DNA of 64,000 bases from Sedimenticolaceae bacterium (lineage in GTDB: Bacteria; Pseudomonadota; Gammaproteobacteria; Chromatiales; Chromatiaceae). The notes beneath the pieces are model-generated. The model was not told the origin of the DNA. It was given only the letters and a program-made list of their open reading frames with translations, and did not search any database. The stretch spans positions 10,086-74,085 of the forward strand of contig OY782758.1 in the NCBI GenBank assembly GCA_963678215.1, in the 5' to 3' direction. The position numbers and the translations under genes were made by a program. This document shows positions 5,843 to 38,893 of this stretch, in pieces (positions within the stretch are counted from its first letter, which is position 1; every line of letters begins with the position of its first letter).

Positions 5843-6824
5843 CGCTAACTTACGCCATGATTGGTCCCTGACTGAGATAGAAGAGTTGTTTGCCTTGCCT
5901 TTCAACGATTTACTGTATCGGGCGCAAACTGTGCATCGGGAGCATTTTGATCCCAATCAGATTCAAGTCAGCACCTTATTATCCATCAAAACCGGTGCCT
6001 GCCCGGAAGATTGTGGTTATTGCTCACAAAGCGCCAAACATCATACGGATTTGGAGCGCGAAAAGCTGTTGCCTCTGGATGAGGTTCTGGCAGCCGCTCA
6101 GCAAGCGAAAAATAAGGGTGCGACCCGTTTTTGCATGGGAGCTGCCTGGCGTAACCCCACGGACAAAAACCTCGACAAAGTGATTGATATGGTAGTCGCC
6201 GTGCGAGGTTTGGGCTTACAGACCTGCGTCACTTTGGGCATGTTGAACAAACCGCAAGCGCAGCGTTTGCGGGATGCCGGACTCGACTATTACAACCACA
6301 ATCTGGATACTTCGCCTGAGTTTTACGGCAATGTCATTGGCACGCGCACGTTTGATGATCGCCTGGAAACTTTGCAACATGTGCGCGATGCTGGCATCAA
6401 TGTTTGTTCAGGTGGCATTTTAGGCATGGGGGAAAAGCCGCGTGATCGCGCACGTCTACTACAGGAATTGGCGAATATGCCTGCACACCCTGAATCTGTG
6501 CCGATCAATTTGCTGGTGCAGATTGAAGGCACGCCGCTGTATGGCGCGGATAAACTGGATCCGTTGGAATTTGTGCGCACCATCGCTGTGACCCGCCTGC
6601 TCATGCCAAAAAGTTATGTGCGCTTATCCGCCGGGCGCACTGAGATGAGTGATGAATTGCAGGCTTTGTGTTTTATGGCTGGGGCGAATTCGATGTTCTA
6701 TGGTGAACGTTTATTAACCACTGACAATCCTGAAGCAGATCGAGACCAGCAACTTCTTGATCGGCTTGGCATCCACATGGAATCCAGCGGAGATGATCAT
6801 TCGCCAGTCTGCTGTGCGGCCTGA
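5835..6824 (+). CDS. bioB: Biotin synthase
   Basis: Start at ATG 5835 ([19 protein letters not shown]). Radical-SAM motif [11 protein letters not shown]. Downstream YNHNLDTS and GGILGMGE. Confidence 0.95.
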
Positions 6825-20399: not shown

Positions 20400-23300
20400 T
20401 TATCGGGTTGCGATAGTGGTGCCTTTGGCTGGCGTATATCGCTTCTTTAACAAAGTACGCGGCAGAGAGAAATTCTTGAAAAGCTGTCGAAGCAGAGGGC
20501 TGTTGCTTTTTTCTGAATGAATGCGGTAGCGCATCCGCCCTTTCCCTAATTGGAAGGTGATATCCAGCATATTATTGTCTGCGCCATTGATTTCCGCCTG
20601 ATCCAGTAAACGGAACCATGACCATGGTCCCTGGTGACGGAGAATCTGGCTGCGTCCCAGGCGACTGATCAGGGTTATTTTACTTTCCGCGCCTTTGCGC
20701 AGCGTGTTGGGCCAGATTAATTGGCTGGCGTGGGAGGGGCCATGATTATAGGAAATCAGTTGTCCGTCAATGTTGAGTACACTGCGCCGCTGGTTGGAGG
20801 ATAGGGCAAGCGGCTCCAGATTGAAGTTGATATTAAGCGCGCCGCGTGGATCGAAGAAACCGTCTTGTATGTCCCAGGCGGCTTTAAGCTGGTTCAACAT
20901 GTCAGTGTCCACCAGATAGTCTTCCGCTTCTTCGGAATACAAGGCACTCAGGTTATCTTCCAGGAACACTTTCAGGTACTTGGTGTAGAACTCACTAAGT
21001 GTGCCTTGTTGGCCGAAGAATTGTTCAAAGTCTTCCAGTGAGGCATCTATCTTGGCGGTCGGATTGAAAGGATAACGTTGGGCGAAACGCTCCTGGTAGA
21101 ACTGGTAGATCTCCTCATCCCATTTCTTTTCCAAGGCTTGCAGGGCTTTGACCAGCAAGACTTTCCAGGATTCCTGCGCGACGGTTTGTATTTGCGCAGA
21201 GAGAGGTTCCGGCAGGCCCGCAGCGACCCGTTCAAGCGCATAGATGGGGTCGGTGCCATCCAGTTGGAAACGGTTGCGCGCGGCTTTTAATGCGGCTCGA
21301 CCGCGATCCGGCGCATTCTGGATGCCAGCGATATAGTCATAGGTGGCGGTCAATGTTTGCATCAAGACTTCGTAATAAGGTGTTTCCTTGTCGCCTTTTT
21401 CGAGCAGGCTGAGCAGCCCTTTGAAGTTACGCAATATGCGTTTGGCCTCACGCCGGTTGGCGTCGTCAGCCAACAGTTTTTTCTCTGCTTCAATGTCCAG
21501 TGCCGGATAGATTTCGGCGTTTTGTTTAACGGCCTCAATCAAGCGGCGTAAGGGATCGGTTGGCCCAGTCAGTTTCTCCAGTACCTCGGATGCGTCACCG
21601 ATATGGTTAAAGTGTTTGACTTTTAACAGGCCTAAGGTGCGTTTCCAGGTGTCCAGATAGTCGTTGATATACAGTGAGCGGATGGCGTCTGAGAGTTGTT
21701 TTTTGTCTTCTTCACTGTATTTGACGGTATCACGTTCGCCCAGCACCCATTGGTCGATCACGGCGAGATCAATTACATTCTGATTTTCTTCGACGAAATA
21801 ATCTTTATAGGCTGATGCGGTGAAAATGGGCTGGATGGCGAATTCATCCGGTTGTTTGGGGTGATGCTGGTAGATGGTGTTGAAGGCTTCACCCATATGC
21901 TGGCGAATATCGACACCGCGATTTAATTCAATTTCCGAGCGTTGTTTGATGATTTGGTAGACCCGTTGCGGGGCGGGTAATTCGCCCAGTTCATTTTGGG
22001 CCTGGCGAACTTCCTCAGCATATTCGGGCAGATCGGATTCGACGTAATCCATGGCGTAGTCAAGATGCATCAACAATTGACGCTGGATGTCGCTTTGGCC
22101 TTCAAAGTATCGGTGCCACTTGGTTTCCATCCAGTTCAACACGATATGTTTGTGGCGGTTGCTTTGGTCTTCAATCATCCGGTATACGCGCAATGCGGAG
22201 AGCTTCTCACTGCTGCCGGGGGTGGCTTGGTTGATTTCTTCAATCAGGCCAGTACCCAGGGCGCGTAAATATCGGGACGATAGCAGGTTCAAATAGGTAT
22301 CTTCGACTTTCGGGCCAATGACGTGGCCTTGATACAGGCCCATGTCGGCGAGTAAAAACCATTGATCACGATACTGGCCGTAGGCCGAGGTGGCGGTGCG
22401 AATGTGGTTAAGCGGCTCCAACAGGTTTCGGCCAGTGACATCAATGCTTTCATCAATGGTGCTTTGCATGAACGCCTTGCTTTGTTCGAGCACCACCTGT
22501 GAGGCGTGAATATTTTTTTCATAATAAAAATGCCAGCCACCAACGACCAATATGCCGCCTAATCCGGCGACCGTGCTGGCCAGAACGAAAATGCGCCGTT
22601 TGTTGCGCGCCACACGCATATTGTCACCAGCAAGCCCGGCTTCCGGGTAGATCACTTGCTGGAACAGCGATTTGGAAAAGTAAGTGATGGAGCGTTGGAT
22701 GGATTTGGCGGCTTCGATCCGGGCAGGCAGGTTGAATGAGGCCGCCGAGGCCTGGACATAAGTATTTTGCGGTATGCCTTGCTGGTAAACCGAAGTGAGA
22801 TACAGGCCCCGCACCAGCGCCGCTGTGGCGTAACGGTCACTTTCCAGTATGTCGGACAGAAATTCGAGCAAGGTTTCTTTAATACCGGCCAGTTGTCGGC
22901 TGAAGGAGAACAAGGCATGGCGTGCCTTTTGGCTGTGCGTATTGGCTAAAGCATCAAAAATGGTGTCATTCAGATTTTGCAGGAAAGTGTCGTAATGTTG
23001 CTCCAGTTCTTCCAGCCAGTGGTCAGCATCGCGCAGGGAATCCATGGAGAAAGTGAAGCCGAAGGTTTCTTCGCGGGCTGAGCGCGGCAGGTTGTAGAAA
23101 AAATCGTCGAAGCCTTCAAGCAGGTCAAATTTGGTCAATACGATATAGACTGGCAGGCGGGTGCCCAGGGTTTCAATCAGGTCGCGCAATTTCACCCGCA
23201 ATAATTCTGCATAATGTTTGCGGTCGCTGACGCGCATCACCAGAATGGAAGGCAGATCAATGGTCAGCACAATGCCATTCAAGGGGCGACGACTGCGTTT

Positions 23301-23993
23301 GGTTTCCAGCCAGTGTATACAGTGCTCCCACACGCGTTGCGGGAAATTTTCATAGGTTTCATAGCCTGATGGTGTCTGATCGCTGATCAGTTCGCCGTCC
23401 GGGTCAATGATCACGGCGTCATTACTGATCCACCAGTCAATTTTGTAGGGCAGCTCCACCTGTTTGCGCTTTTTTTTGCTGCGGCTGTAGGTGCTTTGAG
23501 TGAAGTTTTGATCAGAGCGGTTGATCAGGCTGGTTTTGCCGGAGTTTTCCGCGCCGACCACCATATACCAGGGGAGTTTGTAGAGAAAATCCCGGGTACC
23601 GATGGTCTCCCGCATTTCCTTGAGGTTCTGGTTGAATTGGTTATCCAGTTCCTCCAGAAAAGGCATGACCGGGTCGCGTTCGTCGCGTTCCTGTTTCGCG
23701 CGCTCCTGTTCGATCTTTCTCAGTTTGCGTCGGGTATGGGCCGCGATGATCACGGTGAGCAATAAAAAGGCACCAAGCGTGATCAGACTTCTGACCAGAA
23801 TAGGCTCAAGGGGATATCCTCCGCTTATCTGCCATTTTGGCCCCAGCCACCACAGCAGCGTCAGACCAATCAACAGACCTAGGATGAATAAAACAGTCGC
23901 TGAGTTTTTGACATGCACGAACAGTGGTTTGATCCAGCCGAAGAGCTTACTGAGAAAACCGACGTTCGTCACAGAACTTGTATTTAAAGCCAT
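20400..23993 (-). CDS. tssM: Type VI secretion system membrane subunit TssM (IcmF family)
   Basis: 1197 aa. N-terminal TM helices, Walker A VVGAENSGKTSLINRS, a third TM helix around residue 470, and a long periplasmic IcmF-type C-terminal region. Confidence 0.9.
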   Translation of the reverse strand: MALNTSSVTNVGFLSKLFGWIKPLFVHVKNSATVLFILGLLIGLTLLWWLGPKWQISGGYPLEPILVRSLITLGAFLLLTVIIAAHTRRKLRKIEQERAKQERDERDPVMPFLEELDNQFNQNLKEMRETIGTRDFLYKLPWYMVVGAENSGKTSLINRSDQNFTQSTYSRSKKKRKQVELPYKIDWWISNDAVIIDPDGELISDQTPSGYETYENFPQRVWEHCIHWLETKRSRRPLNGIVLTIDLPSILVMRVSDRKHYAELLRVKLRDLIETLGTRLPVYIVLTKFDLLEGFDDFFYNLPRSAREETFGFTFSMDSLRDADHWLEELEQHYDTFLQNLNDTIFDALANTHSQKARHALFSFSRQLAGIKETLLEFLSDILESDRYATAALVRGLYLTSVYQQGIPQNTYVQASAASFNLPARIEAAKSIQRSITYFSKSLFQQVIYPEAGLAGDNMRVARNKRRIFVLASTVAGLGGILVVGGWHFYYEKNIHASQVVLEQSKAFMQSTIDESIDVTGRNLLEPLNHIRTATSAYGQYRDQWFLLADMGLYQGHVIGPKVEDTYLNLLSSRYLRALGTGLIEEINQATPGSSEKLSALRVYRMIEDQSNRHKHIVLNWMETKWHRYFEGQSDIQRQLLMHLDYAMDYVESDLPEYAEEVRQAQNELGELPAPQRVYQIIKQRSEIELNRGVDIRQHMGEAFNTIYQHHPKQPDEFAIQPIFTASAYKDYFVEENQNVIDLAVIDQWVLGERDTVKYSEEDKKQLSDAIRSLYINDYLDTWKRTLGLLKVKHFNHIGDASEVLEKLTGPTDPLRRLIEAVKQNAEIYPALDIEAEKKLLADDANRREAKRILRNFKGLLSLLEKGDKETPYYEVLMQTLTATYDYIAGIQNAPDRGRAALKAARNRFQLDGTDPIYALERVAAGLPEPLSAQIQTVAQESWKVLLVKALQALEKKWDEEIYQFYQERFAQRYPFNPTAKIDASLEDFEQFFGQQGTLSEFYTKYLKVFLEDNLSALYSEEAEDYLVDTDMLNQLKAAWDIQDGFFDPRGALNINFNLEPLALSSNQRRSVLNIDGQLISYNHGPSHASQLIWPNTLRKGAESKITLISRLGRSQILRHQGPWSWFRLLDQAEINGADNNMLDITFQLGKGRMRYRIHSEKSNSPLLRQLFKNFSLPRTLLKKRYTPAKGTTIATR

Positions 23994-25421
23994 TTATCGT
24001 TCTCCTAGGATGGATTGCACGCTTTGCAGATAGTCTGGTTCCCATTCGCTAACCGATAAGGTTTTCATGTGCTCCGGGACAGCAGTCAGGAGGTCTTTGC
24101 CGACTTGTTGCAGGCCAGCCGCTTGCAATTGTTCAGCCGCTAATAATTTCAAATAATGTTGTTGACGCAAATTGCCCGCATTCCGTTGTTGTTGTTCGAC
24201 TTGCTCCAGTACAGCGCTAATGCCTTGGTTTTCGCGCAGTTCATGCCAGGTTGCTTGCAGGGCTGACCATTCCACATCCAGCGGGCTGGGGTTGTGGGGG
24301 GAATCTGGTGCCTGGATGAGCTGTAATACTTCGTTAAGGTAAGGTTCATCCAAATAAGGTAAACCACCGTCAAATTTGGCCTGGGTTAAAGCTGGCAAAC
24401 GTTCCAATAACGCCAGAATCATGCGCAGGATAGCCTGAGCGGCGGATGGATAACCTAAGAATTGGGTGGTCACCGCTGTATGTAAGGAGCCTGTCAGCCA
24501 GAATGGACTGGCGGTGACGCTTTTTTCAATGTTGCGTAATAACTCAAGGCTGTATTTTCCTGAGTTCATTTGATCGACATATCCATTGATAAGGTCAACT
24601 GGCGGGGGTGCCAGTTCACTTTCGCCATGCGCATTGAGAGGGGGAGTGGATTGCAGGCCGGACCAGAGCGCATAGCGTCGGATTTGATAGCCCAATGGGT
24701 CAGAGGTATCTTGTTGGTTGATAAGGTCGCCCAGGCTCAGCAAAAGTCGTTTTATTTGACGTTCATCGCCGAGATCGGCCAATTTCGGCGGTGTCTGGTC
24801 GGTGGAATTCGTCTCGCTGGATGTCGTAAGTGGCTGTCCTGCGGTGGTATGGGTACTTGCCGATGTTTCTTGAGCGGGTTTAATCGCTTTCAAGCGGCCC
24901 GTCAGTTTTTTCAATCCCGGGGTGAAGGCTTTTTGTTGGGCTTGTTGTTGGAGCGCTGTACAGGCTTCCTCCAGTGCTTCGTAGTGGCCGGCTGTTAAGG
25001 TGTTCGTATCACCCAGGATACGAGCCGCTCCCTGATCGATTCTGAACAGAATTTGCTCGACCAGTTTTTTACGATATGGCGTATGCGCCTCGCCAGGTCT
25101 TGGGTGGCCGTCAATCCAATATTGCGTAATGAAGCCGTTTAACAGTTGCAGGCTGTCCAGCAGGCTGGCGATGTCGCGTTTATTTAGCCAGCAAGTGATC
25201 AGGTGCAGCAGTACGCGATAATGTTTGCATTGGCTGCGTAATATCTGAGTGCATAAGGCTTCGACTTTAGACCAATCAATGCTGTTCTGGTGTAGTGAAC
25301 CATATTTCAGCATGATTTCTTCGAGTTCTTCCAGCAGTGCGTCGTCTTCTTCGCAAATGCCTGTGGGACGCCCTGCGTCAATTGGCGCAAGTAATGTTTC
25401 AAGCATGTTAGTCCTTGTCAA
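23994..25421 (-). CDS. tssA: Type VI secretion system protein TssA (ImpA N-terminal domain)
   Basis: 475 aa with an ImpA_N-type N-terminus: LLAPIDAGRPTGICEEDDALLEELEEI...IDWSKVEALCTQILRSQCKHYRVLLHLI. Its stop abuts the tssM start. Confidence 0.75.
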   Translation of the reverse strand: MTRTNMLETLLAPIDAGRPTGICEEDDALLEELEEIMLKYGSLHQNSIDWSKVEALCTQILRSQCKHYRVLLHLITCWLNKRDIASLLDSLQLLNGFITQYWIDGHPRPGEAHTPYRKKLVEQILFRIDQGAARILGDTNTLTAGHYEALEEACTALQQQAQQKAFTPGLKKLTGRLKAIKPAQETSASTHTTAGQPLTTSSETNSTDQTPPKLADLGDERQIKRLLLSLGDLINQQDTSDPLGYQIRRYALWSGLQSTPPLNAHGESELAPPPVDLINGYVDQMNSGKYSLELLRNIEKSVTASPFWLTGSLHTAVTTQFLGYPSAAQAILRMILALLERLPALTQAKFDGGLPYLDEPYLNEVLQLIQAPDSPHNPSPLDVEWSALQATWHELRENQGISAVLEQVEQQQRNAGNLRQQHYLKLLAAEQLQAAGLQQVGKDLLTAVPEHMKTLSVSEWEPDYLQSVQSILGER

Positions 25422-26684: not shown

Positions 26685-27365
26685 ATGAAAATCGAATACG
26701 ACATTGCTATTTCATTTGCAGGTGAACAAAGGCCTATAGCAAAAAGAATTAATGATGTATTGAAGGAAAATGGGATTTCTACATTTTATGATGAAGATAA
26801 AATAGTCGAATTATGGGGAAAAAATCTAGCGGAGCACTTGCCCACAATTTATTCCGAAACAGCTCGTTTTGTTTTATTGATATTATCTGAGGAGTATTTA
26901 AATAAAGTATGGACCAAGGTAGAAAGGCGTGCTGCCATTTCTAGAATGATAAGAAGCAGCAATGAATATGTTCTTATCTATAAGGTAGGTGATGTGTGTA
27001 TGGAAAATGCTCCTGGCCTTAGTCGTGATACCGCGTATATTTCAGACTCACTTAAAAATCCAGAAGAAGTTGCATTATTAATTATGAAAAAGCTTGGACT
27101 TAGCTACTCATTGGAGGAACTCAAAAGCGTAATCCCAGATATAGCTAACAAGAGATTGCTTGTAGAGTCAAATGAGAAACAATTTCAAGACGGGTTTGTT
27201 CCATACATTACACTAAGAAACGAAGTATATCAACACTGCCGAGGGGTGGATTTGAAGATAATTGAAAAAATACTATATGATTTTCTGAATAGCCAAGTTA
27301 ACAGAGGCTTGTACGAATACTATGGTGGCGCTGTTTCTGGTTATCGCATCCCGAATAAAAGCTAA
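26685..27365 (+). CDS. TIR-domain protein (cassette 1)
   Basis: 226 aa with the bacterial TIR pattern YDIAISFAGEQRPIAKRINDVLKENGISTFYDED...FVLLILSEEYLNKVWTKVERRAA. The Glu in W-x3-E is the candidate catalytic residue. The C-terminal ~90 aa are unassigned. Confidence 0.7.
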   Translation: MKIEYDIAISFAGEQRPIAKRINDVLKENGISTFYDEDKIVELWGKNLAEHLPTIYSETARFVLLILSEEYLNKVWTKVERRAAISRMIRSSNEYVLIYKVGDVCMENAPGLSRDTAYISDSLKNPEEVALLIMKKLGLSYSLEELKSVIPDIANKRLLVESNEKQFQDGFVPYITLRNEVYQHCRGVDLKIIEKILYDFLNSQVNRGLYEYYGGAVSGYRIPNKS

Positions 27366-27959: not shown

Positions 27960-28769
27960 ATGGACAGAATACCACCTTTTGATGCACAACACTTAAAAGC
28001 TGTCTGCCGAGTCCTAGCGGATACAGAACGAGGATTAAGTGGAAGCGAGATAGAATATCTATTGCAAGATTGTAATATGCAAGATGTTGCGCCGACTATG
28101 ACGAAATGGAAAAGGCTATTCAATGCTATGGTAGAAGCTCAAAATACGCATCAGGTTGGAAATCACCTAATCATGTTTGTAAATCGAGCCATGAATCCCG
28201 TTTCATACTCTAGCAGTAAAGCAGCCTTTGATTGGCGAAGAAGTGAATTGAATGTTGTATTAGCATTTTCCGGTTACTCTGTGCGTGAAGACGGAAAGGT
28301 TGCTCGTTCAGCAAAGGAATCAACTATTTCTGGTGCACGGGCTAAAGCTAACGCACTCAAGCATGCACTAGAAGAACGAAACGCTCATCAGCAAGTTTTC
28401 ACATATTGTAGGGCTGAACTTGTAGATCAAAATTACTTTCATGCTGTACTTGAGGCCATTAAAGGCATAGCAGAGCGTATTCGTTCAATCTCTGGACTTT
28501 CTACCGATGGTGCAGAATTGGTAAACACCGCTTTCTCGGTAAAAGCTCCGCTGATTTCAATAAATCCTCTATCCACAGAAACAGAAATAAGTGAGCAAAA
28601 AGGATTTAGTAATATTCTTGTCGGCCTTTTTGGCGCAGTACGAAACCCAACAGCACATGCACCAAAGACCATGTGGGAGATCACTGAGCAAGATGCATTG
28701 GATGTTCTATCAATGGTTTCATATATTCACCGAAAACTTGATAAAGCAAAGGCTAACAAGGCAAATTAA
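27960..28769 (+). CDS. TIGR02391-like protein with C-terminal HEPN-type Rx4H motif (cassette 3)
   Basis: 269 aa. C-terminal FHAVLEAIKGIAERIR...GFSNILVGLFGAVRNPTAHAPK...DALDVLSMVSYIHRKLD matches my recollection of the TIGR02391 family. RNPTAH is the R-x4-H motif. Confidence 0.6.
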   Translation: MDRIPPFDAQHLKAVCRVLADTERGLSGSEIEYLLQDCNMQDVAPTMTKWKRLFNAMVEAQNTHQVGNHLIMFVNRAMNPVSYSSSKAAFDWRRSELNVVLAFSGYSVREDGKVARSAKESTISGARAKANALKHALEERNAHQQVFTYCRAELVDQNYFHAVLEAIKGIAERIRSISGLSTDGAELVNTAFSVKAPLISINPLSTETEISEQKGFSNILVGLFGAVRNPTAHAPKTMWEITEQDALDVLSMVSYIHRKLDKAKANKAN

Positions 28770-29514: not shown

Positions 29515-30435
29515 ATGACAGGGTTTAATAATCAAACCTACAGTACCTTAGTAGAAGATTTACTGAATGACACATTTTACATTGGCGAGCGTTCTCCCAG
29601 AGGGACAATTGCGACTATAAGGCAGTACGCAGAGGTCATTGTAAGAAAGATACTAAATTTTTCTAATGAAGAGTACGTTACCCTTGGTAATAAGAAAATA
29701 ATAGAGGCATTAAATTGTGCCAGCAATAACAGCAGTTTACTATTAGATGCCCTAAAGAAAATTACCGATATTGGCAACAAATGTACGCATACGCAGAGAA
29801 TCGAGCAGGTAACAGATCAAGAGGTAGAAAGTACTCTAGAGAGCTTGTTTGATTTATATGCTTATCTCTTTGTTAACTACTTTGGAAAGTATAGATTTGG
29901 AGAAAATGAAGAAATTCAATCATCATTTTCAATTTTGCCACCGATTATAAGATATATAGCTCTTTCTTCCCTTTATGACCTAGATACTGAAAACGTTGCG
30001 ATTATTGATAAACTATCTCTCGCCATTTTAAAGGCATTTGATGAGCAGAAGGCAATAGGTTGGTTGAACGAAAGAAAGGATGAGTTGAAGAGTATGTCAT
30101 CAGTTACTCCAGAAGCAGAGTCCGATCTAAAGGAAAGACTTGGGGCGGCTACAACAAGTATTATCGTCAACCAAGCTCCGAATATGTATGACTTATGCAT
30201 AGATAGAGTTAAGACTGTGAATGTCAAAATACAAGAAAAAGGGCGTCTATACGATGATTTTGAAAGTGCTATAGAGTTATATAAAAAGGAAGGTGTTGTT
30301 TCAGGTGAGAGCGATGCTGTATCAGAGTTTAACGACTTGATGGATTTTGTCTATCTAGGAAGGAAGGCTAGAGAAAATGAAAAGCTTAAAAATAAAGATG
30401 CATATCTTATAATGGATAACTTGTTTTTCCAGTAA
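29515..30435 (+). CDS. DUF4145-like N-terminal domain protein (cassette 5)
   Basis: 306 aa. The N-terminal IATIRQYAEVIVRKILN...LGNKKIIEAL...LLLDALKKITDIGNKCTH resembles DUF4145, a helical HEPN-related module seen fused to restriction/Abi proteins. The rest is unassigned. Confidence 0.45.
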   Translation: MTGFNNQTYSTLVEDLLNDTFYIGERSPRGTIATIRQYAEVIVRKILNFSNEEYVTLGNKKIIEALNCASNNSSLLLDALKKITDIGNKCTHTQRIEQVTDQEVESTLESLFDLYAYLFVNYFGKYRFGENEEIQSSFSILPPIIRYIALSSLYDLDTENVAIIDKLSLAILKAFDEQKAIGWLNERKDELKSMSSVTPEAESDLKERLGAATTSIIVNQAPNMYDLCIDRVKTVNVKIQEKGRLYDDFESAIELYKKEGVVSGESDAVSEFNDLMDFVYLGRKARENEKLKNKDAYLIMDNLFFQ

Positions 30436-30898: not shown

Positions 30899-31390
30899 AT
30901 GAAAATATCTATCTATACCTTTGTTGTATTCTTTATAGTCGGTTGTACTTTTGGAAGTGAAGGTTCTGAGAAAATAATTAAACGTCTAGAATCAGAAGGA
31001 AAGCCATATTTTGTTCACCTTGTTACTACACAAAAGTATGATCAATTACTAGATAAAATAGAAAATGGAGATGATTATTTAATTCGGGCTTCATCCGTAT
31101 TAACTCAATGGGTAGATGCTTCTACCTCATTATCTTTAAGGTTCTCATTATCGAGAGCAATGACGAAAAATCCTGGTGCGGTTATGAGTCTTGTTCCCAA
31201 TTTTTTTTCAATTCCTGAATTATGTACAATCCCTTACATTGAACCGCCCATTGATCTTGCAATAAAACACATTAATGACTCCATTTCTGCTTTGTCGAGT
31301 TATAGCAACTCTAACGGATCTTACATTAAGTGTATAAATATATATAAAGAAATTAGTAAAAACATAACAAAAAGCTCAAGCGGACGCTGA
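30899..31390 (+). CDS. Lipoprotein, candidate cognate immunity protein (cassette 6, gene 2)
   Basis: 163 aa with lipobox FFIVGCTF. It lies 15 nt downstream of the toxin gene with no attC between them. Confidence 0.45.
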   Translation: MKISIYTFVVFFIVGCTFGSEGSEKIIKRLESEGKPYFVHLVTTQKYDQLLDKIENGDDYLIRASSVLTQWVDASTSLSLRFSLSRAMTKNPGAVMSLVPNFFSIPELCTIPYIEPPIDLAIKHINDSISALSSYSNSNGSYIKCINIYKEISKNITKSSSGR

Positions 31391-31419
31391 AAACCGCTCC
31401 GCTTAGCTTGACGTTAGAT
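31372..31419 (+). other. attC site 6
   Basis: CATAAC (31373-31378) lies inside the ORF end; arms AAGCGGAC / CTCCGCTT; GTTAGAT at 31413-31419. Confidence 0.55.
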
Positions 31420-31428
31420 TCGGAAATT

Positions 31429-32091
31429 ATGATGTACAACCCTATAAGCAAACAACCAAGCCCATTTGTTTACATTATTGACTCACCTTCGCCACAAGAT
31501 TTGTTTGAAGGGTATACTATCGGAATGGCTCTACGAGATGCACTGCGGTCTATTCGCATCCCGCATTTCTATACGCTTGCAGTGAATAGAGAAGCATTGA
31601 ATACAGCGATGAGCGGAAAATTACAAGACTGCATTAATCAAATGCAGCCATATGCTTTAGCAACGGATGCGGTACCGCTTATTCATCTATGTATGCATGG
31701 TGCAAATACGGAAATCTCTTTAACCGACGGTTCGTTTATTACTTGGCAAGAACTAAGGCAGTTGTTAATTTCTCATAATCAAATTAAAGGTTACGACCCA
31801 TTCGTATGCATGGCTTCATGCAATGGAATAGAGGCATCATCCATGGCACATGCATATGACAGTGTGTTTAGCTATCTAATTGGAAACACAGGGCCTGTTT
31901 ATCAATCAGATTTAACTATCGCTTACCTTGCTTTTTACAATCAAATATTCGTAAAGAATGCCACTGTTGATCTAGCTGTATCAAAGATGAAAGTGGCGAC
32001 TGGCGATGAAAATTTTTACTACGCTAGTGGCCAAGTAATCAAACAACAGCGGTTCAATGAACTTTCAAATGGCTGGCAAAATAGAATCTAA
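31429..32091 (+). CDS. Minimal CHAT/caspase-like protein (His-Cys dyad; cassette 7)
   Basis: ATG at 31429. The track ORF start at 31408 lies inside attC 6. PLIHLCMHGANTEISLTDGSFITWQELRQLL...DPFVCMASCNGIEAS matches the caspase-hemoglobinase fold pattern (H-G, then hydrophobic strand, then S/A-C-x-G). Confidence 0.5.
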   Translation: MMYNPISKQPSPFVYIIDSPSPQDLFEGYTIGMALRDALRSIRIPHFYTLAVNREALNTAMSGKLQDCINQMQPYALATDAVPLIHLCMHGANTEISLTDGSFITWQELRQLLISHNQIKGYDPFVCMASCNGIEASSMAHAYDSVFSYLIGNTGPVYQSDLTIAYLAFYNQIFVKNATVDLAVSKMKVATGDENFYYASGQVIKQQRFNELSNGWQNRI

Positions 32092-32178
32092 CAAGCGCAT
32101 AAACTCGGACGTCAAAAAGCTGCGCCGCTCGTTCCTCGCTCTGCAGCTTTTTGCCTCCGGTTATGCTTGGCGTTAGCC
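32086..32178 (+). other. attC site 7
   Basis: TCTAAC at 32087-32092 overlaps the stop; arms CGGACGTCAAAAAGCTGCG / CTGCAGCTTTTTGCCTCCGG; GTTAGCC at 32172-32178. Confidence 0.65.
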
Positions 32179-32193
32179 GTCGAAGGAGAGTAG

Positions 32194-32472
32194 ATGCCTT
32201 ATCTAAGGTTTTATCGAAGAATTCCTATAATACCTGGATTGTTGTATCTGAACTTATCAAAAGGCGGTGTTTCCATCTCTATTGGTAAGCGCGGGTGGAC
32301 AGTTACCTTCGGAAAACATGGTGTTCGCTTTACAGCGGGTTTGCCCGGAACAGATTTGTTTGTTACGGAACATGTAAATTACGAAAAAATCAACGTTAAG
32401 GAGCGTGAAAAAGAGGCTCCAAGCATTGAACAATTTATAGGAGAACGTGATGGCACGAAAGAAGAAAGATGA
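32194..32472 (+). CDS. DUF4236 domain protein (cassette 8, gene 1)
   Basis: 92 aa. YLNLSKGGVSISIGKRGWTVTFGKHGVRFTAGLPGT matches the DUF4236 repeat pattern. Confidence 0.6.
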   Translation: MPYLRFYRRIPIIPGLLYLNLSKGGVSISIGKRGWTVTFGKHGVRFTAGLPGTDLFVTEHVNYEKINVKEREKEAPSIEQFIGERDGTKEER

Positions 32473-33357: not shown

Positions 33358-34752
33358 ATGGAAGCAGAGATAGCAAGTACTTCAAGTATTTCACCAAAAT
33401 CATTTCTAAAAGCTAGAAGACCAGAGCGTTTTTCCGATTCAATAACAAAGGATGTAGGTAAACTAGATCGTTCTGTTTTGGAATTTCAGTTGTCTACGCT
33501 TAATAGAAGAAATATGGAGTTGGCATTCGAAGATTTCGCTAAAAGACTCTGTGAAAAAGTCATTTGTCCAAATCTGCTAGAGCAAACAGGTCCGGTTGCG
33601 GGTGGTGATGGAAAGGTAGATACACAAACCTTTCCCGTATCAGAGCAATCTAAAGTTCTTTGGTATATTGGAGTTGATGAAAATTCCAACAACGAACGAT
33701 GGGCTTTTGCAGTAAGCACACAAGAAGATTGGAAAGCTAAGTGCAGGAAAGATGTTCGAAAAATAAAAGCCACTGACCGAGATTACAAAAAAGCATTTTG
33801 TGTAACAAATATGTATGCAAAAGCTAATCAGCGAAGTGAGTTGGAAGACTCGTTAAGGGAAGAAACTGGAATTGATGTAAGAATTTTAGATATCTCTTGG
33901 ATACTAGATCAAATCTTTTCCAATGGCTACGAACAATTGGCGATTGATTGTTTGTCGATTGACATAGACTGGCGCCGAGAAATAGAAATCGGAGTTAATG
34001 ACTACGCTAGAAATGTAAGGCTAAATGAGCTCGAAGAATTAATAAAAAATGAAATAGACACTAGTAAAGTGCTCCCTCACCAATTGGATTGGTTATTAGA
34101 GGTCGCGGTATTGTCAAAGGAACTCGAAAAGCCCTCAATTGAAACACAGGGTCTTTTTCTAAGAGCTATTAAAGCGGCTGAAAAATTTGGCACTAATTCC
34201 CATCGATTTAATGCTCATTATCAGTATGCTTGGGCTGCCTATTGGTGGTTTGAAGACATTGCTATATTTGGCGAACAGCTATCGTTATGTTTGCAGATAG
34301 CGAAAGGAATTGAGCAATCGGCTCAATGGGGAGATACAGTATCGCTTCTTGGTCTCTATTCGAGCTACTATCGAGGTAGTGAAGGTGAAAGTGATTTGGA
34401 TATCGAATCGCTTCTGTTAGAGGCAAACGGCGAACTCAATAAGCTTGCAAAAAAGGATGAACGACCCAGTAATTCTCTGATGTCTCGGATCTATATTGAA
34501 TTGTTAAATTTGCATTCCATCAAGAATATAGACCAAGCTTCAGCCATATTTTCATCAATGCACGAAATTATGAAAGAAGGTGAGAAGTTAGTAGGCTTCT
34601 CATTTAATGAAGTATCCGATTTGGTTACCGAGTTGGATAGTTTGTTTGGTGAATTAGAAAGTTATGAAAATTTACTTGACTATATTACAGAGTGCACTTC
34701 ACGTCGTGAGGGCGAGGTTAGGGCCAATGTCATTAACTTAAGGGATAAGTGA
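33358..34752 (+). CDS. Hypothetical 460-aa-class protein, 3' end disrupted by IS insertion (cassette 9)
   Basis: The native reading frame runs to about 34724. The last 8-9 codons and the stop are supplied by the IS inverted repeat. The N-terminal region FEDFAKRLCEKVICPNLLEQTGPVAGGDGKVD...WAFAVSTQEDWK weakly resembles Mrr-type restriction-endonuclease cores. The C-terminal half is helical and repeat-like. Confidence 0.45.
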   Translation: MEAEIASTSSISPKSFLKARRPERFSDSITKDVGKLDRSVLEFQLSTLNRRNMELAFEDFAKRLCEKVICPNLLEQTGPVAGGDGKVDTQTFPVSEQSKVLWYIGVDENSNNERWAFAVSTQEDWKAKCRKDVRKIKATDRDYKKAFCVTNMYAKANQRSELEDSLREETGIDVRILDISWILDQIFSNGYEQLAIDCLSIDIDWRREIEIGVNDYARNVRLNELEELIKNEIDTSKVLPHQLDWLLEVAVLSKELEKPSIETQGLFLRAIKAAEKFGTNSHRFNAHYQYAWAAYWWFEDIAIFGEQLSLCLQIAKGIEQSAQWGDTVSLLGLYSSYYRGSEGESDLDIESLLLEANGELNKLAKKDERPSNSLMSRIYIELLNLHSIKNIDQASAIFSSMHEIMKEGEKLVGFSFNEVSDLVTELDSLFGELESYENLLDYITECTSRREGEVRANVINLRDK

Positions 34753-36164
34753 TTGCGTACGCTTATAGTTTGGTCGGAAAGCGGGGACCGCAACCTTTTT
34801 CAAATGCCTCGGGAAAGACCGACCGGGCCTGACGGGTTCGACCGCATTGACCATGCGTTGCAACAAGCACTGACATAAGTCGAGCACAGCATCAGAGCAT
34901 AACACGCGCATCAGGTTATTCTTCATCGCCGATAAGGCATTGGCCCAGTTGATTTGGTATCGATAATGCCTTTTTCGGTAACGCTCATCGGCCAACCACT
35001 GGGCAATGAACACAAAAATTGCGGTCAGGTTCTGCGCCAGGATTTTGGCCTGAAAATCCTGTAAGACGACCTGGGGCGAACGACCTGAGACATTCTCCAC
35101 CTCCAGGCGTAATTTGCTCCGCTTATACTGCTCCTCAATGCCCCAACGTAAGGCATACAACTTGGCAAACAACCGAGTGGGGTAGGTTTTCTCGTCCAGT
35201 AATGAGGTAGCCAAAACTTCAATCTCTCCAGACTTCAGTTCCACCCGGATTAAGCGTACCAGGATGGGCTTTGTTGGCAAATGAAAGTCTTTACACTGGC
35301 GGGCATTCTGGGCATTGGGTGTCAGCGACACGAGAGTGCTTTTTTGTCCTGATGCCACAAAGGCTTTCACTTCAGCATGGAAGTCCAGGCGTACCCGCGC
35401 ACAAAAGCCCCGTTGTTGCACGCAATGGAAAACAAACAGCCAGAACGCCGCATAGCCCCGGTCATACAAGAAAAGATCATCTGGACGGGACTCCAGGACA
35501 TACTCACTGGCAAAAGTGCGTTCACCCTCCGCATAGGGAGCCAAGTCGGCTTGAATCACCCGATCATTGAGCACATCATACAGCGTAGACCAGCGGGCCA
35601 AAGGGACGCCATCGCCTTTGCGGTGACCAAAATGTGCGGCAATCTGAGGGGTAGAGGGCAACCGGGCAGTAGAACCATCCACGGCCAAGACACGCAAACC
35701 TTGCCAACGTCGTTCACCGAGTTGTTGGGAAGCCAGATCAACCAGACGGTCATTGAGCCAAACCAAGGCGTGTGGGTTGAGTTTTTGACGTGCTCGACAC
35801 AAAGCGGCGGGGGTGACTGGCTTCACGTTGGGTTGTGCTTCCTGTAACACCTCAAAAGCCTGATCCAGCTCATTGCGCAGGGTGCCTTTACGGAAATTGA
35901 GGCGTAGAGGGACTAAGCGGGATAGCGGTAAATCGCGTTGGCGGGAAAAATCACCGACCTGAGTGCGGGCTTGTTGGAGAAAGTCGTCTGAGCGAATAAC
36001 ATCCTTTATAGGGTCATAGATGTTTCTAAATAATGCGCTGAATCTGGGCAAGATCGGTTGTCGGGACTGGGGCTGAAAGGGACATGAAATGCTCCTGAGT
36101 AAACGATGAACTGGTAAAATACCTTACACTATTCAGGCACTTAGTGCTTAAGTTAATGACATTG
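34725..36164 (-). mobile_element. IS4-family insertion sequence (1440 bp) with about 27-bp imperfect terminal inverted repeats
   Basis: IRL CAATGTCATTAACTTAAGGGATAAGTG (34725-) and the complement of IRR CAATGTCATTAACTTAAGCACTAAGTG (-36164). The first 18 bp are identical. GC content is visibly higher than in the flanking cassettes. No direct target duplication was recognised. Confidence 0.8.
34738..36051 (-). CDS. IS4-family DDE transposase
   Basis: 437 aa with DDE blocks VLAVDGS, LFLYDRGY and YALRWGIEEQYKRSK (Y-x2-R-x3-E-x6-K). Confidence 0.85.
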   Translation of the reverse strand: MPRFSALFRNIYDPIKDVIRSDDFLQQARTQVGDFSRQRDLPLSRLVPLRLNFRKGTLRNELDQAFEVLQEAQPNVKPVTPAALCRARQKLNPHALVWLNDRLVDLASQQLGERRWQGLRVLAVDGSTARLPSTPQIAAHFGHRKGDGVPLARWSTLYDVLNDRVIQADLAPYAEGERTFASEYVLESRPDDLFLYDRGYAAFWLFVFHCVQQRGFCARVRLDFHAEVKAFVASGQKSTLVSLTPNAQNARQCKDFHLPTKPILVRLIRVELKSGEIEVLATSLLDEKTYPTRLFAKLYALRWGIEEQYKRSKLRLEVENVSGRSPQVVLQDFQAKILAQNLTAIFVFIAQWLADERYRKRHYRYQINWANALSAMKNNLMRVLCSDAVLDLCQCLLQRMVNAVEPVRPGRSFPRHLKKVAVPAFRPNYKRTQSLIP

Positions 36165-38318: not shown

Positions 38319-38603
38319 TTGCTAAGTGATTCAGAAAAACAAAGTTTAATCAATTATTTAGCGAAACACCCGCAAACAGGTGCCATCATGCAGGGTACTG
38401 GCGGCATCCGAAAACTCCGTTGGGCTTCTGGCAGCAAAGGAAAAAGTGGTGGTGTTCGAGTGATTTACTACCACTACCATGAAATGGTTCGACTATTTTT
38501 GCTTTCCATTTTTGGTAAAAGTGAAAAGGCTAATTTATCTAAAGCAGAAAGGAACGAACTTGCCAAATTCACTCAATTACTTGTGAAACACTATGGTGAA
38601 TAA
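38319..38603 (+). CDS. higB: HigB-2-like (RelE/ParE superfamily) toxin, apparently N-terminally shortened (cassette 12, gene 1)
   Basis: LSDSEKQSLINYLAKHPQTGAIMQGTGGIRKLRWASGSKGKSGGVRVIYYHY...LFLLSIFGKSEKANLSKAERNEL parallels Vibrio cholerae HigB-2 as I recall it (LSDEEYRLFQ...GDVIQGTGGLRKIRVASKGKGKRGGSRIIYYF). The frame opens right after the attC core and has only a TTG start. Confidence 0.6.
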   Translation: MLSDSEKQSLINYLAKHPQTGAIMQGTGGIRKLRWASGSKGKSGGVRVIYYHYHEMVRLFLLSIFGKSEKANLSKAERNELAKFTQLLVKHYGE

Positions 38604-38605
38604 AG

Positions 38606-38893
38606 ATGTCGGAATTTTTCAACAGTATTAAACAAGGCTTGGAAGAAGCTATTGATTACTCAAAAGGCAGATGTCCTAAAGCTGTTGTACATAAATTTTC
38701 CCCCATTGATGTAAAGAATATTCGTGCAAAAATGGGGATGAATCAAAATGAATTTGCATCCGCTTTTGGCATTAGTGTTAGTACATTGAGGCATTGGGAG
38801 CGTGGGGATCGTTCTCCGCAGGGGCCAGCTTTAGTGTTGCTCAATGTCGTTGCAAAAGAACCCCATGCTGTACTTAAAGTATTGGCAAGTTAA
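38606..38893 (+). CDS. higA: HigA-2-like XRE HTH antitoxin (cassette 12, gene 2)
   Basis: 95 aa. IRAKMGMNQNEFASAFGISVSTLRHWERGDRSPQGPALVLLNVVAKEPHAV. Confidence 0.7.
   Translation: MSEFFNSIKQGLEEAIDYSKGRCPKAVVHKFSPIDVKNIRAKMGMNQNEFASAFGISVSTLRHWERGDRSPQGPALVLLNVVAKEPHAVLKVLAS

Follow-up and report, generated by a model that had tools for sequence, protein, structure and literature searches.

A single-gene integron cassette encoding a 220-residue protein with a predicted caspase/CHAT-like fold and an invariant His-Cys pair

We analyzed a 64,000-nucleotide (nt) stretch of the Sedimenticolaceae bacterium genome (contig OY782758.1; the whole stretch is referred to here as the window) and one open reading frame (ORF) within it, which encodes a protein of 220 amino acids (aa) on the plus strand at positions 31429 to 32091 (ATG at 31429 and TAA at 32089 to 32091, according to the ORF listing and the sequence). 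The ORF is carried by a single-gene integron cassette, and its product very likely has a caspase/CHAT-like fold with a conserved catalytic dyad. We hold, with moderate confidence, that the gene encodes a minimal, complete clan CD (CHAT-like) cysteine protease and would serve as a one-gene abortive-infection or anti-phage conflict module. A first-pass annotation, made from the sequence without database searches, had described a bare CHAT/caspase-like protein at this place; the ORF indeed begins at the start codon given there and stops at 32089 to 32091, and the end coordinate given there, 32178, corresponds to the end of the downstream attC recombination site (mapped to 32086 to 32179).

That annotation had proposed structure prediction followed by a structural search as a check of the fold, and this check, run with AlphaFold2 and Foldseek, returned a caspase-like fold. 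The AlphaFold2 model, built on a 38-sequence alignment (predicted local distance difference test [pLDDT] score, 91.9; predicted template modeling [pTM] score, 0.88), is an alpha/beta/alpha sandwich with a six-stranded, mostly parallel sheet (residues 9 to 19, 46 to 50, 79 to 91, 125 to 128, 149 to 153, and 196 to 200) plus helices. In the model, H90-G91 close strand 79 to 91, and C131 lies just after strand 125 to 128. A His-Gly pair ending one core strand and a Cys following the next constitute the caspase-hemoglobinase arrangement, so the signature that had been read from two peptides, IHLCMHGANTEISLTDGSFITWQELRQLL (residues 85 to 113) and FVCMASCNGIEAS (residues 125 to 137), both of which are present in the protein, is borne out by the model. 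The protease fold fills the 220 aa and leaves no room for a separate ligand-binding domain. The protein carries no sensor, repeat, or targeting domain; neither a signal peptide nor a transmembrane segment is apparent by eye from the sequence, and the protein is predicted to be cytoplasmic.

Searching the PDB with the model in Foldseek yielded 57 matches at an E value of ≤1e-3; the 50 listed at the top are without exception clan CD proteins. The best match was SAVED-CHAT (8tl0; E = 7e-8; template modeling score, 0.60; 18% identity), followed by legumain, caspase-3, -6, -7, -8, and -11, CED-3, GPI8, plant asparaginyl endopeptidases and ligases, DdvA (8rw5), and Csx29 (8eey). Against BFVD, the matches were viral caspase, clostripain, and metacaspase-like proteins. 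At the sequence level, neither the single protein nor a close-family profile retrieved anything but noise from the PDB (a TLR8 leucine-rich repeat and a short-chain dehydrogenase). A profile of the broad family (A2) aligned weakly with the 8tl0 chain (E = 0.18), placing 'ilHlsaHG' on ILHFIGHG and 'CmSsC' on LNAC; within 8tl0, 47 residues separate the His and Cys so matched, which is exactly the spacing of H375 and C422. In SAVED-CHAT, the H375A/C422A double mutation abolishes activity (Steens et al., 10.1101/2023.06.23.546230).

Three sequence elements of the protein are candidates for the active site and its substrate pocket:
31480 to 31491, plus strand: D18-S19-P20-S21, at the C-terminal end of strand beta1 (residues 9 to 19), a candidate S1-pocket element.
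31684 to 31701, plus strand: the H86-L-C-M-H90-G91 motif (HLCMHG), with the H90 codon at 31696 to 31698.
31807 to 31827, plus strand: the C127-M-A-S-C131-N-G133 motif (MASCNG), with the C131 codon at 31819 to 31821.
We predict that H90 is the catalytic histidine (general base), that H86 is the second His of a CHAT-type HxxxHG motif, and that C131 is the catalytic cysteine (nucleophile). Conservation was counted in 60 diverse relatives (24 to 49% identity) and in a separate set of 38 close homologs. Among the diverse relatives, H90, W106, and C131 are invariant (60/60), and the two predicted dyad residues align on H375 and C422 of SAVED-CHAT; the conservation of His and Cys, which had also been suggested as a check, thus holds. 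H86, G91, S19, and Y170 are each found in 59 of the 60, position 18 is always acidic (E in 56 and D in 4), and P20, G133, and an acidic residue at position 161 are each present in 54. In the close homologs, D18, S19, H86, C88, M89, H90, G91, W106, M128, A129, S130, C131, G133, Y166, and Y170 are all invariant. Judged by this conservation, the putative His-Cys motif is not a chance match.

Curated family models hardly recognize the protein. Its only Pfam match was to Peptidase_C13, below threshold (residues 80 to 142; E = 0.056; 13.4 bits versus a cutoff of 22.8), with no match to Pfam CHAT (PF12770) at an E value of ≤1 and none to NCBIfam. Subthreshold Pfam matches among the 60 relatives were to C13 (18/60), CHAT (7/60; best E = 0.0013), and C14 (2/60; best E = 0.00056). 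Comparing A2 with a 23-sequence CHAT alignment in hhalign gave a probability of 17.8% (E = 0.0014) over 76 columns that cover the Cys half alone, with CMSSC paired with the LSACETG of canonical CHAT. HLCMHG and MASC correspond to HIATHG and LSAC of the CHAT alignment consensus, and the CHAT-type pair of HxxxHG and (S/A)xC is present. The family is therefore an uncurated clan CD group that is structurally closest to CHAT, and, as far as profile scores can tell, it lies outside Pfam CHAT, C13, and C14 by those families' own criteria.

A word-index search recovered 77 homologs (44 to 83% identity), all annotated as hypothetical and most of them 215 to 235 aa long, from hosts that include Aquitalea, Methylomonas, Acinetobacter, Xanthomonas, Dickeya, Aeromonas, Vibrio, Yersinia, Serratia, and Stutzerimonas. 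When 1.84 billion cluster representatives (50% identity clusters) were searched exhaustively with a profile, at least 1,807 clusters scored at an E value of ≤1e-3, 640 at ≤1e-10, and 102 at ≤1e-30. The best 150 of the 1,807 clusters are almost all 200 to 270 aa long and contain no real fusions. Longer entries were considered as domain fusions and rejected: their N-terminal extensions of 40 to 150 aa read as translated attC (P0010, P0040, P0188, and P0099; for example, '...PNKSFKPTPCRG...GRLNSGVRC'), and the apparent fusions are false because gene callers over-extend starts through attC sites. A bare protease domain is the norm inside this family. The earlier remark that a bare domain is unusual consequently stands in one sense and falls in another. 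The contrast with large, fused CHAT proteins is valid, since across 151 genomes of the phylum the open frames that contain PF12770 matches measure 420 to 2,800 aa (except for two fragmentary matches), the highest-scoring ones mostly exceeding 1,000 aa; within the protein's own family, the bare domain is the rule. The genome from which the window comes also encodes a canonical CHAT protein (G000:C1:1348833-1349711; PF12770, 126.8 bits; 507-aa open frame).

The spread of the family through Proteobacteria is patchy. Among 400 genomes of the class, 3 contained a member, and the close subfamily was found at 12 loci among 185,579 species genomes. With tblastn, no match was obtained in 50,697 phage records; viral contigs gave three marginal matches and no more, PHROG gave one weak match (phrog_38219; E = 7e-6), and plasmids gave a single distant match (Vibrio ponticus pVPon1).

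The boundaries of the cassette were mapped as follows:
31414 to 32173, plus strand: single-gene integron cassette of ~760 bp, from the TT of the upstream R' box to the G of the downstream R' box.
31362 to 31419, plus strand: upstream attC, with R'' ACATAAC at 31362 to 31368 and R' GTTAGAT at 31413 to 31419.
32086 to 32179, plus strand: downstream attC (the cassette's own), 94 nt, with R'' ATCTAAC at 32086 to 32092 and R' GTTAGCC at 32173 to 32179.
We recognized attC sites by an R'' box resembling RYYYAAC, an R' box resembling GTTRRRY, an imperfect hairpin, and the orientation of the array, and the target cassette shows all of these. The upstream site, which closes the preceding Tlde1/lipoprotein cassette at its 3' end, is 58 nt long and folds into an imperfect hairpin (dG, -21.1), and the crossover point (G|TT) within it sets the 5' boundary of the target cassette. 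The downstream site folds into a long imperfect hairpin (fold of 32077 to 32216; dG, -46.7), and the TAA stop codon of the ORF falls within its R'' box, ATCTAAC. Because both flanking sites fold into the expected imperfect hairpins, we regard this as a genuine one-gene cassette of ~760 bp. The annotation's reading of the locus as a cassette is thereby upheld, as is its statement that the cassette holds no partner, the 220-aa ORF being alone between the two attC sites. An alternative TTG start codon at 31408 lies inside the upstream attC and is unlikely to be in use.

Relatives have the same cassette structure elsewhere. attC-like sites lie on both sides of the single gene in Xanthomonas campestris, Marinobacter lipolyticus, a Xanthomonadaceae metagenome-assembled genome (MAG), and Vibrio anguillarum, as well as in Methylomonas and Stutzerimonas stutzeri, where both flanks were judged by eye in folded sequences; in one X. 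campestris strain, an insertion sequence (IS) lies inside the downstream attC. One-sided attC-like sites were seen in Fluviicoccus, Marinobacter sp., and Aquaspirillum. attC-flanked single-gene copies thus occur in at least six genera and on several metagenome contigs. Using a constrained-fold attC detector, we found an attC-like hairpin directly 3' of the stop codon at ~15 of 29 loci (metagenome contigs included), in comparison with a random-segment null that is leaky, ~10% of random segments reaching the threshold.

No gene is consistently linked to the family. The neighbors differ at every locus examined, and among 105 ORFs at 13 loci we found no recurrent neighbor family, save two transposases and two glyoxalases; a tblastn search around the 13 relatives also found no homologs of the window's other cassette proteins. 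Co-occurrence of homologs with specific neighbors, which the annotation had suggested examining in other arrays, is not supported at these loci. Defense genes are nonetheless frequent neighbors. In Acinetobacter baumannii, the homolog is preceded on the same strand, at a distance of 43 bp and in three independent contigs, by a Lit-like Peptidase_U49 gene:
A. baumannii AP023077.1, L002:5034-5957: Lit-like gene; 6001-6690: homolog of the cassette protein.
These two unrelated proteases, encoded side by side, could form an operon or a defense islet. A Pseudomonas relative adjoins an AriA-like ABC ATPase with DUF4435, a Rhodospirillales MAG relative adjoins PDC-M30A/B, Shedu and Kiwa genes lie within 4 kb of some relatives, and a HEPN_AbiU2 cassette is found near a Xanthomonas relative. 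On the V. ponticus plasmid pVPon1 (48 kb), the distant homolog (27% identity) stands beside a divergent SIR2 and AAA ATPase pair (L057:2489-5546). The array in the window itself holds TIR, HEPN-type (Hypoth_Ymh), and Tlde1 cassettes. On a freshwater metagenome contig (L058:560-6654), a distant member (36% identity) follows a fixed run of four genes of 1,133, 189, 177, and 196 aa; this run recurs in several contigs, and its 1,133-aa gene has a weak match to RNA-dependent RNA polymerase. The 196-aa gene upstream of this distant member, considered as a linked partner, proved unrelated to the family.

The array occupies a low-GC island at ~26 to 39 kb of the window (36 to 43% GC, versus 50 to 55% in the flanks), bordered by the type VI secretion system (T6SS) genes tssM and tssA (20400 to 25421) and an alanine dehydrogenase gene. 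About 10 attC-like sites lie behind plus-strand ORFs between 27.3 and 36.8 kb, their hairpins opening with (C/T)TAAC-type sequences and closing with GTTA(G/T), so that plus-strand ORFs or ORF pairs of the island each have an attC hairpin 3' of them. The cassettes flanking the target are a two-gene Tlde1 and lipoprotein cassette upstream and a DUF4236 and membrane protein cassette downstream. Other features of the array are as follows:
26685 to 27365: TIR-domain protein, single-gene cassette, several cassettes upstream of the target.
27960 to 28769: Hypoth_Ymh (HEPN-type) protein, single-gene cassette.
29515 to 30435: 306-aa protein of unknown type, single-gene cassette.
33358 to 34752: 464-aa protein of unknown type, single-gene cassette, its 3' end clipped by an IS.
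34738 to 36051: DDE_Tnp_1 transposase of the IS that clips the 464-aa cassette.
Where tested, the other single-gene cassettes of the array had no PADLOC matches. Near the right end of the island, a RelE/HigB-like ORF (94 aa) and a helix-turn-helix antitoxin-like ORF (95 aa), identified by eye from the translation, lie at 38319 to 38893; such a pair is typical of the toxin-antitoxin content of chromosomal cassette arrays.

No integrase gene (intI) adjoins the array in the interval from 25.4 to 26.7 kb of the window. We therefore class the array as a cluster of attC sites lacking an adjacent integron integrase (CALIN). The genome (2.48 Mb in one contig) encodes an intact integron integrase, IntI, ~360 kb from the array (G000:C1:2164215-2165162; TIGR02249, 433.7 bits versus a cutoff of 265), and the CALIN cassettes could therefore be mobilized in trans. 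A degraded second intI fragment is also present in the genome (G000:C1:2369912-2370277).

Recent work has identified caspase-like proteases of bacteria as immune executioners in gasdermin systems, Craspase, SAVED-CHAT/PCaspase, and type IV Thoeris. To our knowledge, each characterized bacterial caspase-like immune protease has a separate sensor or activator. The cassette gene, by comparison, would be a self-sufficient genetic unit; integrons capture it and move it as a single gene, in the present case within an array that lacks an integrase. We envisage that the protein would remain latent in the cytoplasm until an infection-linked switch, through which a phage product would bind it or dimerization or oligomerization would be induced; we favor such switches because caspases and CHAT proteases are activated in these ways. 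The activated protease would then cut host proteins, phage proteins, or both. Cleavage after a basic P1 residue is a tentative prediction, made because the residue that ends strand beta1 is always acidic and one that follows beta5 is nearly always so, positions that line the S1 pocket in other clan CD enzymes. A bolder version, which we consider rather doubtful, is that the 220-aa protein would be a complete one-gene immune system, the smallest self-contained caspase-type defense module, distributed by integrons in a plug-and-play manner. Here, the protein would itself sense infection, for example through dimerization that a phage protein induces across the exposed edge strand, and its promiscuous proteolysis would then bring about abortive infection. 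Streamlined anti-phage systems are reported to be abundant among integron cassettes, in a study that does not mention a protease cassette (10.1101/2024.07.02.601686), and caspase-like proteases are the executioners in type IV Thoeris (10.1101/2024.10.24.620036) and in type III-B CRISPR immunity (10.1101/2023.06.23.546230).

Several points weigh against the proposal of a one-gene defense protease. The link to defense is guilt by association, drawn from ~13 to 20 loci without a matched control, and two relatives lie between housekeeping genes (PrmA and shikimate dehydrogenase), the ORFs 3' of these two being unrelated to each other. A search against the PADLOC v2.0.0 defense hidden Markov models matched 0 families at an E value of ≤1, in a release that predates type IV Thoeris, and we found no paper in the literature that describes such a mini-caspase family. 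For the target copy, no promoter signal above chance was found, and the array has no adjacent intI or cassette promoter (Pc), which bears on expression. An unregulated protease without an inhibitor or sensor needs a latency mechanism. As for specificity, the P1 prediction is based on residue position alone, and known CHAT proteases vary in the residues after which they cleave. Finally, a relative in Dickeya sp. resides in an integrative and conjugative element (ICE).

The best-surviving alternative, which we nevertheless consider improbable, is that the protein only executes, as one half of a split system whose other component, encoded elsewhere, would activate it through a small-molecule signal or by cleaving it. 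Candidates for that component are a TIR or cyclase cassette of the same array and a gene on the chromosome; type IV Thoeris and the action of SAVED-CHAT on PCaspase are the models. Known executioners are indeed switched by TIR-made N7-cyclic ADP-ribose (N7-cADPR) or by an upstream protease (10.1101/2024.10.24.620036; 10.1101/2023.06.23.546230). The array contains a stand-alone TIR cassette (26685 to 27365), and the genome encodes a canonical CHAT protein elsewhere. That TIR cassette, however, lies several cassettes upstream and is not coinherited, having no homolog near any of the 13 relatives in the tblastn search, and TIR, cyclase, and SAVED families are not recurrent among the 105 neighboring ORFs. 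The small size of the protein also leaves no separate domain in which a signal molecule could bind. Because single-gene cassettes are reshuffled one by one, a partner on which the protein depended would frequently be left behind. Activation in trans, which the first-pass annotation had suggested, is therefore disfavored because no partner is linked, and the neighborhoods lend it no support. A split type IV Thoeris system formed with the array's own TIR cassette was considered as a specific candidate and rejected, as the two do not co-occur near relatives.

A lower probability still attaches to the gene being selfish or offensive cargo of mobile elements, in which the protease would act in counter-defense by cleaving a host defense or regulatory protein or would be an addiction toxin that stabilizes the array or an ICE. 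The Dickeya homolog (SZVX01000014.1, L062:6001-6740) fits such a role: it is located inside an ICE with TraG/TrwB, DUF2859, DUF3577, methylase, and topoisomerase genes, between the transfer genes and the methylase/topoisomerase block. It has an attC-like hairpin on the 3' side only and resembles a cassette that integrated at a secondary site. Chromosomal integron arrays also hold many toxin-antitoxin cassettes, exemplified in the window by the RelE/HigB-like pair, and there is the weak PHROG match to phrog_38219. Nevertheless, phage genomes and viral contigs are essentially devoid of the family, plasmids gave one distant match, the target cassette contains no antitoxin-like partner, and the neighbors of relatives are mainly host-type defense systems. 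A role in the service of mobile genetic elements is disfavored mainly because of this absence from phages.

Slightly less probable again is a nonconflict accessory enzyme, either a peptidase with a processing role or a transpeptidase or ligase of the legumain/GPI8 type, acting on a specific cellular substrate. Clan CD transamidases and ligases (GPI8, butelase, and peptide asparaginyl ligases) are among the structural matches, Peptidase_C13 is the commonest weak Pfam match, and some loci are among housekeeping genes. An enzyme of this kind fits poorly with the extremely patchy distribution (3/400 genomes), with a cassette-mobile gene that has no conserved neighboring substrate gene, and with an immune CHAT protease as the structurally closest relative. 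Pseudo-caspases exist in eukaryotes, and nothing specific speaks for a catalytically dead scaffold or decoy that keeps the fold alone, which is very unlikely because the invariance or near invariance of His90, Cys131, Gly91, and the acidic post-beta1 residue at 24 to 49% identity is the signature of selection on catalysis. A T6SS effector, suggested by the position of the array beside the T6SS cluster and by the Tlde1 cassette, was rejected, as the protein lacks PAAR, MIX, and other trafficking domains and its cassette contains no immunity gene.

The family may show what is minimally required for caspase-type activation to be regulated and so help to explain how proximity or ligand control evolved before sensor fusion; alternatively, it may reveal a new activation principle. 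Its function is directly testable because each member is a single short gene. The family would provide a model that has so far been absent from Pfam, NCBIfam, and defense catalogs, and it illustrates concretely how integron arrays can store streamlined conflict genes.

Among known systems, SAVED-CHAT of type III-B CRISPR/CBASS hybrid loci (8tl0; 10.1101/2023.06.23.546230) is the best structural match; the motifs align, and both proteins occur in conflict-type neighborhoods. SAVED-CHAT is ~480 to 500 aa long and has a SAVED domain that senses cyclic triadenylate (cA3) and drives filament formation, whereas the cassette protein is the protease core alone, without a ligand sensor or an associated substrate gene, and the sequence similarity between the two is below family thresholds. 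The broader Pfam CHAT group (TPR-CHAT/Csx29 of type III-E Craspase and DdvA) has the same fold and type of dyad motif as the target, but canonical CHAT proteins carry TPR or other modules, and the target falls short of the CHAT gathering score. Legumain and GPI8 (MEROPS C13) form the second tier of structural matches (E values of 3e-6 and above), and the C13 match spans the His-to-Cys segment; these are, however, eukaryotic-type secretory or endoplasmic reticulum enzymes with Asn/Asp specificity and only 8 to 10% identity to the target.

The functional model that we favor comes from the PsCaspase of type IV Thoeris and from PCaspase, small cytoplasmic caspase-fold proteases that cause abortive infection by promiscuous cleavage after Arg (10.1101/2024.10.24.620036; 10.1101/2023.06.23.546230); the candidate acidic pocket residues are conserved in the target family. 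Both are C14-type proteases encoded in fixed operons with an activator (TIR or SAVED-CHAT), while the target family has no linked activator, and its C14 matches are rare and subthreshold. Lit (Peptidase U49, from the E. coli e14 element) has an unrelated zinc metalloprotease fold, and any likeness to the mini-caspase would be functional only. With that proviso, Lit may be regarded as a conceptual analog: a latent protease, encoded by one gene, that on sensing a phage product cuts an essential protein of the host.

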